This document shows, piece after piece, positions 6,022-54,881 of a stretch of 64,000 nucleotides of DNA (positions are counted from its first letter, which is position 1; each line of letters opens with the position of its first letter). Where the stretch lies: assembly GCA_963844035.1 (NCBI GenBank), contig CAWJMT010000009.1, forward strand, positions 81,798-145,797. Reading direction: 5' to 3'. The notes beneath the pieces were generated by a model that searched no databases, had not been told where the DNA came from, and was given only the letters and a program-made list of their open reading frames with translations. Both the position numbers and the translations under genes were made by a program. Origin of the DNA: an uncultured Gemmatimonadales bacterium (GTDB taxonomy: Bacteria > Gemmatimonadota > Gemmatimonadetes > Gemmatimonadales > GWC2-71-9).

Positions 6022-7498
6022 GTGGGTTCCCCCTGGTCGAGGAGCTGATCCCGGCTCCCGATCCGCTGGAAGCGTGCGCGCAGCTGGCCGACCTTCCGTA
6101 TCTCGTCTTGCTCGACAGCGCGACCACCGAGACACCCGTCGGGCAGCACTCATTTCTCACCGCCGATCCCCCAGCGCTGGTTCGCAGCAAGGGCGATCTG
6201 ACGCAACAGCGCACCCCGGCGAGCGAGGTGTGGACGCGCGTGGACGGCGATCCGCTCAGCGCCGCGCGGCAGCTGCTCGCGCCCTTCGCTGCGGCGCCCG
6301 TACCCGGGCTGCCCCCCTTTCAGGGAGGGGCAGCCGGTTACCTGGGCTACGATTGGGGCGCGATGCTCGAGCGTGTGCCCCGCGCCGCATACGACGACCT
6401 CGCCATCCCGGACGTCTTGCTCGGCATTTACGACTGGGTGATCGCCTGGGACCATCGGACGAACCGCGCCTGGCTCGTGTCGACGGGGATGCCCTGAGAC
6501 GGGACCGGCTCGGAGCGAGCGCGCGGCTGAGCCGCATGGCGTTCGTGAAGGAACGGCTGGCGGGCAGGCGGGCAGGCGGGCAGGCGGGCGGCGAAGGCAA
6601 AGCCCGCCCACCCGCCGACCCGCCCACCCGCCCCTCCGCCCCGACGTATCCCGTCCCCGACATCGCGGACGCCTCCCGTCTCGGGCTCCGCTCGACGTTC
6701 ACCCGCGCCGGCTACCAACACGCCGTGGCGCAGGTGATCGAGTACATCTGCGCCGGGGACATCTTTCAGGCCAACCTGTCGCAGCGGCTCGAAGCCCCGC
6801 TTGTGGGCACGCCGTTCGAGCTGTACCGCCGGCTCCGGTCCCGCAATCCCGCGCCGTTCGCGGCGTTTCTCGATTTCGGCGAGCTGGTGGTGGCGAGCTC
6901 ATCCCCCGAACGCTTCCTGCGCCTCGATGGCCGGCACGTGGAAGCCCGCCCCATCAAGGGAACGCGGCCCCGCGGGGTGGGACCGGAGCACGACGCGGCT
7001 CTGGCCATGGCGCTCGCCGAGAGCGACAAGGATCGCGCGGAGAACGTGATGATCGTCGATCTCCTGCGGAACGACCTGTCGCGCGTGTGCGAGCCGGGAT
7101 CGGTGCGGGTGCCCGAGCTGTTCGCGCTCGAGCACTACGCGACCGTGCACCACCTGGTCTCGACCGTCGTGGGCGACCTCATCCCGACGCACAATGCGGC
7201 AGACCTGGTGCGCGCCGCATTCCCCGGCGGGTCGATCACGGGCGCGCCCAAAGTCCGCGCGATGCAGATCATCGCCGAGCTCGAGCCGACGCGGCGCGGG
7301 GTGTATTGCGGCGCGATCGGCTACTGGAGCACGACTGGGGCATTCGACACGAGCATCGTCATCCGCACGTATCTCGTGCTCGGGGACGTCGTGTATTTCC
7401 AGGCGGGGGGCGGGATCGTCGCCGACTCCGATCCCGAGCAGGAGTACCGGGAAACGCTCGACAAGGCCGGAGGCCTCATCGCCGCCCTGGTGCCATGA
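6018..7498 (+). CDS. pabB: Aminodeoxychorismate synthase component I; apparent frameshift near 6495
   Basis: LLDSA, PPFQGGAAGYLGYD, GDIFQANLSQR, SSPERFL, PIKGTRPR, KDRAENVMIVDLLRNDL, FPGGSITGAPK. Confidence 0.9.
6559..6642. repeat. Intragenic inverted arrays of 8-mers within pabB
   Basis: (GGCGGGCA)3-GGCGGGCG at 6559-6590 and CCCGCCCA/CCCGCCGA/CCCGCCCA/CCCGCCCC/TCCGCCCC at 6603-6642. Confidence 0.8.
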
Positions 7499-8109
7499 TC
7501 CTGCTCATCGACAACTACGACTCCTTCGTCTACAACCTGGCGCGCTACACGCGCGAGCTGGGGCTCGAGCCGCACGTCGTGCGGCATGACGCGATTTCGG
7601 TAGCAGGCGTCGCGGCGCTCGCCCCGTCGCACATCGTGATCTCGCCCGGCCCGTGCTCGCCCACCGAAGCGGGGATCTCGACCGACGTGGTGCGCCGGCT
7701 GGGCGCCACGATCCCGATCTTGGGCGTATGCCTGGGCCACCAGTGCATCGGAGCGGCGTACGGCGCGCCGATCGTCCGCGCGGGACGACCGATGCACGGA
7801 AAGGCATCGTGTATCCACCACGATGGGCGCGGCATTTTCACCGGGCTCCCGAACCCGTTCCAGGCCGCCCGTTACCACTCGCTCGCCATCTCCCGCGCGG
7901 GGATGCCTCCCGAGCTGCGCATCACGGCCACGAGCGACGACGGTGAGATCATGGCGGTCGAGCACACGCACCATCCCGTGGTGGGACTGCAGTTCCATCC
8001 CGAGTCGGTGCTGACAGAGCACGGCTACCGCCTGCTCGATCGATTCTTCCGGGGCGCGGCGTCACGGGGAGATCAGCTGCCCGACCGCGCCGACGGCATG
8101 GCCCGATGA
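7495..8109 (+). CDS. pabA: Aminodeoxychorismate/anthranilate synthase component II (glutamine amidotransferase)
   Basis: MILLIDNYDSFVYNL, ISPGPC, LGVCLGHQ, RYHSL, GLQFHPES. Confidence 0.92.
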   Translation: MILLIDNYDSFVYNLARYTRELGLEPHVVRHDAISVAGVAALAPSHIVISPGPCSPTEAGISTDVVRRLGATIPILGVCLGHQCIGAAYGAPIVRAGRPMHGKASCIHHDGRGIFTGLPNPFQAARYHSLAISRAGMPPELRITATSDDGEIMAVEHTHHPVVGLQFHPESVLTEHGYRLLDRFFRGAASRGDQLPDRADGMAR

Positions 8110-8669
8110 TCCTCGAAACGATCCTCACCACTCAGGATTCCGCGGGCACGGTGCACTGCGCGCCGATGGGTGTGGAGTGGGGCGAGGAGGAAATCGTGAT
8201 CAAGCCGTTTCTCGAGACGACGACACTGCGGAACCTCCGCGCTACGGGCGTCGCGGTCGTGAGTCTCACCGACGATGTGATGCTGTTCGCCCAGGCGGCG
8301 ATCTCGGACGCGCGGTTTCCGACTTTCCCCGCGGCCGTGGTACCGGGCGTCGTACTCGAAGCCGCGTGCTCGTGGCGCGAGGTGCGGGTGCACGCCATCG
8401 ACACGACGCCGCCGCGCGCCCGCGTCGTCACCACCGTCGTCCATCGCGGTGTGCGCCGGGAGTTCATCGGCTTCAACCGGGCCCGGCACGCCGTGCTCGA
8501 GGCCGCGATCCTCGCGACGCGTACGCACCTGCTTCCCGTCGAACAGATCCGCGACGAGTTCGCACGGCTGCAGGTGATCGTCGACAAGACCGCGGGCCCA
8601 AGCGAGCGGGAGGCGATGGCGCTGCTCACCCAGCACGTGCGCACGGCCGTCCCGGTGGCGGCACGATGA
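8106..8669 (+). CDS. DUF447 family protein (H4MPT cluster Orf22-like)
   Basis: ETILTT..HCAPMGV, KPF..TTLRNL, GFNRARHAVLEAAILATR, DKTAGP. Confidence 0.8.
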   Translation: MILETILTTQDSAGTVHCAPMGVEWGEEEIVIKPFLETTTLRNLRATGVAVVSLTDDVMLFAQAAISDARFPTFPAAVVPGVVLEAACSWREVRVHAIDTTPPRARVVTTVVHRGVRREFIGFNRARHAVLEAAILATRTHLLPVEQIRDEFARLQVIVDKTAGPSEREAMALLTQHVRTAVPVAAR

Positions 8670-53000: not shown

Positions 53001-53498
53001 ATGCGCAGGTTCATCAGCCGCAGTAAGACCGTTCTTCTCGCGCTCGGCCTGGTCGTCTCCGCGCGGGCGGGTGCCGCCCAAGTCGCGACCTCGTATCAAA
53101 TCGGCCTCCCGGCCGTGCCGCCCGAGCAACTGAGTATGGACCTGCTCATGGTCGGCGTCCGGGTCGCGTCCATCAAGCCACTCGTCCCGGGCATTGACTT
53201 CGAGTTCCTGCTGCTGCCCGCCGTCTTGGCCCAAGGCGCCCTAGTTTTCGGGTCGGGTCTCGACGCCACGTGCCCGCTGCCGATCAGTCGATCGGTCCTT
53301 ATCGCGCCGCGAGCGGGGGCCAGTGTACTTGTAGCTGCTGCGCCAGGTGGCCTCTACACCGAGCCGGGCTATAACGTCGGCGTCGGACTGGTGGGGCACA
53401 CGGGCGCGAAGACGGCGGTCCGGGTGGACATCGGTCGCCACTGGTTTGACGAGTACGGAGTCACCGTGGTTACGATCGGAGTGGTCACGGTGCCCTAA
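53001..53498 (+). CDS. Hypothetical exported protein, probable small beta-barrel
   Basis: Signal peptide (..ARAGAAQ), beta-strand pattern GYNVGVGL, VRVDIGRHWF; GGAGG upstream. Confidence 0.6.
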   Translation: MRRFISRSKTVLLALGLVVSARAGAAQVATSYQIGLPAVPPEQLSMDLLMVGVRVASIKPLVPGIDFEFLLLPAVLAQGALVFGSGLDATCPLPISRSVLIAPRAGASVLVAAAPGGLYTEPGYNVGVGLVGHTGAKTAVRVDIGRHWFDEYGVTVVTIGVVTVP

Positions 53499-53513
53499 GT
53501 GGGGTCGAGCCTC

Positions 53514-54881
53514 CTAGTCCGCCGGCACCGCCTCACGCGTCGGCGCCGTGCTTGACTCCTCCCCCGTCCCCCGTCCCTCGTCCCCCAGCTTCTTGGCGAT
53601 CTCCCGCGTGATGTGCATTGAGCAGAACTTCGGGCCGCACATGGCGCAGAACTCGGCCGACTTGAAATACTCGGCGGGCAGCGCTTCGTCGTGGAGTGAA
53701 CGCGCGCGCTCGGGATCCAGGGACAGGCGGAACTGCTCGTTCCAATCGAACGCGAAGCGGGCCCGGGACAGTGCGTCATCCCGGTCGCGGGCGTTCTTGC
53801 GCCCGCGGGCGATGTCGGCTGCGTGGGCGGCAATCTTGTAGGCGATAACCCCCTCGCGCACCTCCTCGGCGTTCGGCAGGCCGAGGTGCTCCTTGCGGGT
53901 GACGTAGCAGAGCATGTCGGCCCCATACCAGCCGATCATCGCTGCGCCGATTGCCGAGGTGATGTGGTCGTATCCCGGTGCGATGTCGGTGACCAGCGGT
54001 CCCAATGTATAGAACGGGGCCTCGTGGCAGATCTGCTTTTGCTTCCGCACGTTGACTTCGATCAAATGCAGCGGGATGTGCCCGGGGCCTTCGATCATCA
54101 CCTGGACATCCTGAGCCCAGGCGCGCTCGGTCAGCTCGCCCAGGGTGTCGAGCTCGGCGAACTGTGCGCGGTCGTTCGCGTCGGCGAGCGAGCCGGGCCG
54201 AAGCGCATCCCCGAGCGAGAGCGTGACGTCGTACTTGCGCGCGATTTCGAGGATCTTGTCGAACCGGGTGTAGAACGGGTTCTGCTTGTTGTGGTGCGTC
54301 ATCCAGTACGCGTGCAACGATCCCCCGCGCGACACGATCCCCGTCACGCGTCCCAGGGCCAGCCCGACGTACTCGCGCAGGATGCCGCAGTGAACGGTGA
54401 CGTAGTCGACGCCCTGCTGCGCCTGGTGCTCGACCATATCGAGCAGATCGTCTTCGCTGAGATGCTCTAGATCGTCGGCTTCGGTGACTGCCTGGTAGAT
54501 CGGCACGGTGCCGATCGGCACGGGCGAGGCTTCGAGGATGGCCCGGCGAATGGCGTCGATGTCGCCACCGGTCGAGAGATCCATCACCGTGTCGGCCCCG
54601 TAGTGCACCGCGTGATGCAGCTTCTCGAGCTCCTGATCGATGTTGGACTCGACCGCCGAGTTGCCGATGTTGGCGTTGATCTTGACCTTCGACACCGCAC
54701 CGATCGCCATCGGGTCCAGGCGCCCGCGCAGATGCGCAACGTTCGCCGGGATGACCAGACGTCCGCGGGCCACTTCCGCGCGGACGATCTCCGCGGCGAT
54801 CTCCTCACGCTCGGCGACGCGCTGCATGGCGGGGGTAATCGTGCCCTGGCGGGCGAAGAACATCTGTGTGACGGGCTGCAT
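53514..54881 (-). CDS. thiC: Phosphomethylpyrimidine synthase
   Basis: [71 protein letters not shown]. Confidence 0.97.
53560..53587. repeat. Intragenic tandem 7-mer array at the thiC 3' end
   Basis: TCCCCCG TCCCCCG TCCCTCG TCCCCCA, encoding GDEGRGTGE. Confidence 0.65.

Follow-up and report, generated by a model that had tools for sequence, protein, structure and literature searches.

Heptamer and octamer arrays inside conserved genes of a Gemmatimonadales genome and their association with PF05635 four-helix-bundle genes

Short repeats that are found between genes, or tolerated within them, occur in several groups of bacteria, among them the STRR repeats of cyanobacteria, which are similar heptamer repeats, and the Rickettsia palindromic elements, conserved units of 100-150 bp that are inserted as one piece and are tolerated in frame in conserved genes, where they add a peptide at permissive places. 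The present work concerns arrays of about four units of a 7- or 8-mer, often in inverted pairs, inside five genes (pabB, mnmE, yidC, mtgA and thiC) of a 64,000-nucleotide stretch, hereafter the window, from an uncultured Gemmatimonadales bacterium (G000:C9:81798-145797), and the association of such arrays with genes encoding four-helix-bundle proteins of the family PF05635. The G000 genome assembly comprises 3.47 Mb in 39 contigs with 67% G+C and a completeness of 83.7%, and the closest records to the genes of the window are Gemmatimonadaceae and Gemmatimonadales metagenome-assembled genomes (MAGs).

Catalogues of heptamer and octamer arrays exist for cyanobacteria, Xanthomonas and Beggiatoaceae; neither an accepted origin nor an accepted function is offered in the accessible parts of the two reports (PMC4692102; PMC4679880). 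The G-rich heptamer arrays of Xanthomonas and Nostoc, which amount to about 70 convergent inverted pairs per Xanthomonas genome, are depleted in coding regions, have positions conserved between species with varying lengths, and are interpreted as G-quadruplex motifs (Rehm et al., 2015, PMC4692102). In Coxiella burnetii the 23S intervening sequence (IVS) has a 28-bp terminal stem with tandem GACAGAT heptamers ahead of an S23p open reading frame (ORF), and RNase III cleaves it at the first repeat (PMC4990558, accessible part); a 23S IVS with an S23p ORF is also known from Leptospira, through citations in the same paper. The function of the PF05635 proteins is given there as unknown, and the Xanthomonas homolog is a homopentamer (PMC4990558, citing Lin 2006). 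The family resembles in sequence and fold the Avd protein of diversity-generating retroelements, both being small four-helix-bundle proteins (PMC10053308, accessible part). S23p is not mentioned in the accessible parts of the two array papers (PMC4692102; PMC4679880), none of the papers listed as naming the PF05635 family ties the protein to repeat arrays in its title or abstract, and the link between arrays and PF05635 cassettes described below was not found in the published literature searched.

Arrays within genes and across the genome

Arrays were located with Tandem Repeats Finder and their positions in genes were set by Pfam domains and ortholog alignments. All eight arrays reported by the initial annotation, a reading of the DNA without database searches, were recovered (Table 1); they are arms of tandem words, made of 3.6-5 units and 27-40 nt long, each sits within an open frame, and the peptides quoted for them were confirmed by translation. 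In pabB the C-rich arm starts 9 nt after the G-rich one, in the linker between the N-terminal and chorismate-binding domains. The arms of mnmE occupy two loops of the G domain, placed by Pfam inside the G-domain and helical region, and those of yidC the linker between the first transmembrane segment (TM1) and the periplasmic domain, the 5' arm just past TM1 and a PPKKP motif and the 3' arm directly ahead of the periplasmic domain. The array of mtgA lies in a variable loop between the membrane anchor and the transglycosylase domain, just ahead of the latter, and that of thiC past the CX2CX4C motif and the radical-SAM domain, in the C-terminal tail, which has about 17 extra codons with respect to the empty sites of two relatives (G002 and G006). 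The ortholog alignments of the five proteins agree with the earlier proposal and support the peptides as lineage-specific fillings of variable loops, linkers and tails; no orthologs were seen that keep the array peptides with scrambled codons. The repeat acts at the nucleic-acid level, as had been proposed, given its periods of 7 or 8 and the presence of its words between genes as well.

Inverted-repeat pairs are present in pabB, mnmE and yidC, in all three with the G-rich arm on the 5' side, and mtgA and thiC have a single array in G000; the arms of mnmE and yidC are 83-92% complementary. The mnmE arms bracket native, conserved coding sequence, as the segment between them aligns with orthologs having or lacking arrays, out to other families, and includes TKAD at the place of the NKxD G4 motif. 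Paired arms are predicted to fold into stems of at least 30 bp, with computed values of –69.7 kcal/mol (z –4.8) for pabB, –79.2 kcal/mol (z –7.3) for mnmE in the transcript and z –2.0 for yidC, and the mnmE orthologs with paired arms, made of three different words, keep 31-35 end-to-end base pairs.

The window arrays belong to a genome-wide family. Among rows with at least 3.3 copies, 125 have period 7 and 124 period 8, as against 18 each for periods 6 and 9. After merging, G000 has 214 period-7/8 arrays of at least three copies in 49 word families, and a control in which the genome was permuted by triplets inside 3-kb blocks has none; at a laxer score the shuffle gives 36 + 36 + 35 = 107 unmerged rows (periods 7-9), to be set against 553 merged arrays. 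Chance does not explain the arrays, and the equal density in codon-shuffled controls that, according to the initial annotation, would have spoken against the family is not seen. About four units are present in 150 of the 214 arrays, with a median length of 30 nt. Four or more GGG runs occur in 78 arrays; the other 136, among them those of the largest family, AGGTGTC, with 40 arrays, lack them yet have the same four-unit length. An inverted partner within 700 nt accompanies 131 arrays and a direct partner 9; the inverted cases are G-rich on the left and C-rich on the right in 117 instances, opposite in 5 and of low skew in 9, and among same-period neighbouring pairs the inverted match beats the direct one in 38 of 38. 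The loops of the AGGTGTC family, 1-14 nt long, are mutually unrelated, and loops and flanks differ between copies.

The preference for housekeeping genes that the initial annotation had suggested was not borne out. Elements (215, obtained by merging arrays and comprising 76 pairs and 139 singles) were classed by whether a readable coding frame runs through them, with 3000 random segments as control. A coding frame was found on both sides in 31/215 elements against 1467/3000 random segments, and no readable frame in 108/215 against 440/3000, so that arrays are clearly depleted inside genes, about 3.4-fold, and the in-gene position is that of a minority. The in-gene share is underestimated and 31/215 is a lower bound, because the classifier files yidC, pabB and thiC as edge cases and misses mtgA. 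A classifier of single arrays had been dropped, as it missed the in-gene cases of the window itself, in which the partner arm or a short N-terminus lies in the flank. Further in-gene elements are found in nadE and in the gene of an Fe-S oxidoreductase, at interdomain linkers in both, and one element classed as internal is really a gene junction. The words are free of stop codons on both strands in 29 of 31 in-gene elements and in 97 of 184 others (odds ratio 13, p 6.5e-6), and none of the 29 elements whose word has stops on both strands lies within a readable frame, a result which partly follows from the definition of "internal". The AGGTGTC family, with TGA on one strand, is almost wholly intergenic because stop-containing words are filtered from genes.

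The in-frame location claimed earlier holds for all five genes, with the qualification that in the G000 assembly pabB is split over three frames and mnmE over two. The single-base surpluses responsible (Table 1) lie outside the repeats, at 27-64 bases from the arrays in pabB and about 425 bases in mnmE. Near-identical soil-metagenome contigs have one base fewer at both pabB positions (runs X1 and X2) and at the mnmE position (runs X2 and X4), and in relatives the frames of mnmE (445-617 aa) and of pabB are intact. The breaks are read as errors or private single-base indels of the assembly. Programmed frameshifting or bypassing tied to the hairpins was considered for the two genes and rejected, because the breaks lie away from the arrays, the relatives are intact and the near-identical contigs are without exactly those bases. 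The soil-metagenome contigs of a relative, about 90-99% alike (four DNA runs), are short and terminate at the arrays.

Table 1. Repeat arrays, PF05635 cassette and frame-breaking bases in the window (positions in the window; arms named in gene sense for mnmE and yidC; periods and copy numbers as located by Tandem Repeats Finder)
Feature	Positions	Strand	Word or annotation	Encoded sequence
pabB G-rich arm	6555-6593	+	GGCAGGCG x5	AGRRAGGQAGG
pabB C-rich partner arm	6603-6641	+	CCCGCCCA x4.9	RPPADPPTRP
mnmE 5' arm	10060-10090	-	GGGGAAG-type; + strand CCCCTTC x4.4	GEEGRGKGEG
mnmE 3' arm	9961-9989	-	CCCTTCC-type; + strand GAGGGAA x4.1	PFPLPSSPFP
Native mnmE coding segment between arms	9990-10059	-	70 nt	DARDEFLAQCTAPVVTVYTKADL
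yidC 5' arm	12574-12603	-	GGTCGGGCGG-type; CGACCGCC x3.8	
yidC 3' arm	12490-12518	-	GACCGGCC/GACCGCCC; CGGTCGGC x3.6	TGRPADRPTAP
mtgA single array	21952-21985	-	GGCGGGCA-type in gene sense; CCTGCCCG x4.2	AAGRRVGGQAGR
thiC single array	53560-53586	-	GGGGACG-type in gene sense; TCCCCCG x3.9	GDEGRGTGE
Four-helix-bundle gene	63315-63695	+	PF05635 (23S_rRNA_IVP), Pfam E 8.7e-31	
Left arm of PF05635 cassette	63193-63255	+	degenerate ATAGACGC-type words	
Right arm of PF05635 cassette	63684-63746	+	includes GCGTCTAT x2.9 at 63717-63739	
Two single-base surpluses splitting pabB	6491 and 6528	+	outside repeat; frame analysis	
Single-base surplus splitting mnmE	10515	-	outside repeat	

Association with PF05635 genes and turnover of words among relatives

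The PF05635 protein of the window has as its best solved relative 2GSC, the XCC0516 protein of Xanthomonas campestris (E 1.2e-18), and its gene is enclosed by a 63-nt inverted repeat whose arms are 78% complementary. Seven PF05635 loci are present in G000, of which five have arrays on both sides within 300 nt and one on one side only, and the seventh has degenerate arms seen by eye; random segments have arrays on both sides within the same distance in 65 of 20000 cases. The words of four G000 cassettes are also those of gene-less families with 40 (AGGTGTC), 15, 11 and 8 arrays; the cassettes of the genome include ones with the words AGGTGTC and AGGCGGGA. In other genomes 80 related PF05635 loci were collected, including records labelled Anaerolineaceae, Vicinamibacteria, Actinomycetota and Actinobacteria; for the 65 with at least 300 nt on both sides, an array lies upstream in 44, downstream in 44 and on both sides in 38, with complementary arms in 37, and the words differ widely, in up to 19 copies. 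The identity of the PF05635 proteins falls steadily from 0.76 for pairs with identical words to 0.47 for pairs with words of different length, and all 15 protein pairs at least 80% identical have a common word. In two relatives the word around one PF05635 gene is that found in mnmE of the same genome (GGGGACG in G006, GGCGGTCA/TGACCGCC in G009).

A cassette of an Anaerolineaceae MAG (L051) has arms of TCAGTTA / AACTGAC x17.6 around its PF05635 gene, and this word is one base away from the TAACTGA heptamer of Beggiatoaceae, cyanobacteria and Bacteroidetes (PMC4679880, accessible part).

PF05635 is present in 25 of 31 genomes, and the arrays of relatives were counted in samples of 40-113 kb from each of 13 genomes. 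The four PF05635-negative relatives, similar in G+C content, have no array in 385 kb, and six of the nine positive ones have 2-16 arrays in 40-100 kb. Within the orthologous loci of the five genes, 38 arrays were counted in 161 kb of positive relatives and none in 58 kb of negative ones; G003, which belongs to the genus of G000, is 100% complete and lacks PF05635, has no array at any of the five sites. The link to an Avd-like protein suggested by the initial annotation is thus real as an association, given the arrays on both sides of five of the seven genes and their absence in the PF05635-negative relatives.

The words at a fixed site are replaced between congeners, usually in both arms together. 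The mnmE loops carry GGGGAAG // CCCTTCC in G000 and G001, GGGACGG // CCCGTCC in G006, GGGAAGC // CGCTTCC in G004 and G005, an unrelated GACCGCCC array in the right arm only in G009, other 8-mers in G015 and G016, and nothing in G003 and G014; the first arm is missing in G002, and the words recorded at this site across genomes are GGGGAAG, GGGGACG, GGGAAGC, GACCGCCC, CTGCCCGC and CTACCGAC. Replacement is seen also in the yidC linker, the pabB linker, the mtgA loop, where G009 has a complete inverted pair built of a different word, and the thiC tail, in which one of three different words stands (others than that of G000 in G001 and G009) or none at all (G002 and G006).

Proposed origin of the arrays and competing explanations

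The reading that we regard as probable is that the window arrays are gene-less arms of the family that brackets PF05635 genes, likely written at the DNA level into permissive sites, where stop-free words survive. The unit laid down is not a contiguous element, because the AGGTGTC loops are unrelated and the mnmE loop is native gene sequence; it would instead be one arm, or an arm pair around a short target segment, with no core of its own. Directionality and a measuring of length in the underlying process are indicated by the constant order, G then C, and by the length of four units. Existing arrays may be preferred overwriting sites for the word family active in a genome, and the protein encoded by the cassette would read its own word in tandem copies and be involved in the copying, conversion or maintenance of the arms. 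In transcripts the paired arms might be RNase III substrates, like rRNA intervening sequences such as that of Coxiella, and selection would then remove stop-containing words and frame-breaking lengths from genes, leaving in-frame linker peptides.

A number of observations weigh against this proposal. The arrays of mtgA and thiC have no partner arm in G000, and a by-eye look at the filled and empty thiC sites and at the AGGTGTC family gave no convincing target-site duplication or insertion motif. Three of the nine PF05635-positive relatives have no array in about 100 kb, and array density is not correlated with PF05635 copy number over the 13 genomes (Spearman 0.31, p 0.31), contrary to the relation that the initial annotation had proposed to test. 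No PF05635 master copy for the four word families of the window genes is present in the assembled 83.7% of G000, and one for GGGGACG is seen only in G006 and G002. The trend of protein identity with word would be expected from shared descent of gene and arms alone, and the relatives are kin, not independent samples, so that co-occurrence among them is no independent evidence. No enzyme for array copying or insertion was identified, and RVT_1 has no match in G000 (83.7% complete; template and variable repeats were not looked for), so that no reverse transcriptase stands beside its PF05635 genes; the dedicated repeat-generating system imagined at the outset stays at the level of inference. To our knowledge, PF05635 proteins have no known catalytic activity. 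Finally, no array-spanning read or contig was found in the four DNA runs.

A first alternative is that the arrays evolved in situ without dedicated machinery, through slippage, hairpin-templated correction and gene conversion, with the PF05635 gene as a passenger that would profit from the hairpin, e.g., via RNase III processing. The unrelated loops and flanks of the copies, with no target duplication seen, the arms that decay or change singly (the first mnmE arm absent in G002, the unrelated right arm in G009) and a density that does not scale with gene copy number are in line with it; the recurrence of identical words at dozens of unlinked places (AGGTGTC at 40) together with the sharp four-unit preference would not be expected from local slippage, the strict G-then-C order (117 versus 5) needs a directional process, and PF05635-negative relatives of similar G+C are without any arrays. 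We hold this origin to be unlikely, while giving it real weight. That the arrays are G-quadruplex or regulatory repeats of the Xanthomonas/Nostoc type, kept for their four G-tracts with no tie to PF05635 and with the in-gene copies as by-products, is strongly doubted: it would account for the four-unit preference, convergent pairs and coding depletion, as in the GGGNATC repeats (PMC4692102, accessible part), and for the 78 of 214 arrays with four or more GGG runs, but the remaining 136, AGGTGTC included, keep the four-unit length, the cassette association argues for a tie to PF05635, and a GGGAATC array of 4 units extends over the start of the PF05635 homolog XCC0516 in Xanthomonas itself (supplement row, PMC4692102).

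Miniature transposable elements (MITE/REPIN) moved by a transposase encoded elsewhere, e.g., of the Y1/RAYT type, would be dispersed and mostly intergenic, would form hairpins and would come in families of identical arms, as the arrays do, and Y1_Tnp homologs exist at four G000 loci; no array lies within 300 nt of any of the four (at one of them the distance is about 1.3 kb), and the unconserved loops, with native coding sequence in that of mnmE, leave no contiguous transposed unit, so that we give this explanation very little chance. Scarcely credible is selection at the protein level for flexible linkers rich in Gly, Pro and Arg, the nucleotide periodicity being secondary: all the sites are indeed loops, linkers and tails that vary in length in orthologs too, but a period of 7 or 8 runs through all three frames in turn, most occurrences of the same words are intergenic, the arms are complementary at the nucleotide level with unrelated peptides, and close relatives are without the peptides.

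The proposal of gene-less arms written into permissive sites can be taken further, to a transposase-less writing of words in which each lineage of pentameric PF05635 proteins would specify its own word of 7-9 bases and have inverted arrays, each of about four units, laid down or overwritten around short DNA stretches, including its own gene, rRNA spacers and segments of essential genes. Such an extension is distinctly unlikely; if true, it would account for the heptamer and octamer repeats found across many bacterial phyla and would represent a new mode of in-place genome editing. Whichever mechanism operates is constrained by three features, namely the arms flanking native essential coding sequence, which imply that the inserted unit is no contiguous mobile element, the replacement of words at fixed sites between congeners, usually in both arms together, and the complete lack of arrays in congeners that have no PF05635 gene. 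These congeners offer natural plus/minus genomes for dependence tests, and the persistence in genes of stop-free words only is a clean example of selection filtering a DNA-level process. In practical terms, the arrays break short-read assemblies, and annotators should expect spurious-looking low-complexity peptides in the conserved proteins of such genomes.

Neighbouring features and comparison with described systems

Further repeats were observed in or next to other genes. At 39520-39548 of the window, the long polA-containing frame 36225-41393 includes a period-9 array, CGCCCGCCC x3.2, upstream of the 3'-5' exonuclease domain; its period is codon-compatible, and it may have no relation to the 7/8-mer family. 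Elsewhere in G000, outside the window, the only assembled 23S rRNA gene (C3:249423-252400) has AGGTGTC hairpin pairs on both sides, at 249280-249348 (about 75 nt before its start) and 252450-252522 (about 50 nt after its end), which are possible processing stems in the rRNA spacers, and another AGGTGTC array (C5:173996-174027) begins right after the 3' end of an apparent tRNA gene.

Adjoining pabB, positions 1-9650 of the window hold a pterin gene cluster, presumably of the tetrahydromethanopterin type, with genes for CitG-like, PTPS, hydantoinase-A-like, amino-acid kinase, pterin-4a dehydratase, pterin-binding DUF4346, DUF447 and GHMP-kinase-like proteins. The GHMP-kinase-like gene (8177-9649) has an in-frame stop at 9200-9202; near-identical contigs have one base fewer at 9106 and one more, a T, after 9252, and because of both differences the stretch between 9106 and 9252 is out of frame in the assembly. 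A glycine/sarcosine/betaine reductase cluster at 16078-21172, with a thioredoxin gene beside it, has frames that end and then continue without a shift (17490-18677 then 18678-18932; GrdA from 20849), the pattern expected of selenocysteine TGA codons. Around 12700-13470, the gene order mnmE-yidC-yidD-rnpA followed by dnaA-dnaN suggests that the window spans the replication origin region.

The cassettes of G000 share with the Coxiella IVS a four-helix-bundle gene between terminal inverted repeats with a stem of about 28-30 bp, the tandem heptamers (GACAGAT x3-4 at the Coxiella 5' end) and the protein family, to which both the Coxiella S23p and the product of the window gene belong (PMC4990558, accessible part). 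They differ from an IVS in standing between ordinary genes and not in rRNA, as the G000 23S gene fits the model over its full length (positions 1-2925 in 2978 nt), with hairpin pairs only at its flanks, and also in that most copies are gene-less and some arms lie inside protein-coding frames, where they bracket native sequence. Of the two analogies drawn in the initial annotation, that with the Rickettsia palindromic elements fails, as here only the arms are shared and are themselves tandem arrays, the loops are local and differ between copies, native in the case of mnmE, and no conserved core is found. A REP/REPIN-RAYT system is set apart by its Y1 transposase gene flanked by repeats, no instance of which was found within 300 nt of the four Y1_Tnp loci, and a diversity-generating retroelement by its reverse transcriptase, RVT_1 having no match in G000, where template and variable repeats were not searched for.

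The analogy with heptamer repeats, by contrast, is apt, and the closest are the arrays of Xanthomonas and Nostoc, whose four-unit preference, convergent pairs and coding depletion are all found in G000 (PMC4692102, accessible part). Unlike in those genomes, four G3 tracts are not a trait of the family as a whole, though the window arrays of GGGGAAG, GGGGACG and GGCGGGCA have them; G000 has many word families, including 8-mers and words unable to form G-quadruplexes, and shows word turnover at fixed sites and in-frame copies in essential genes. To what has been described for these systems, the window adds arms that bracket native sequence inside a gene, words that are replaced between orthologous sites, a filter by stop codons and a congener free of both arrays and PF05635.

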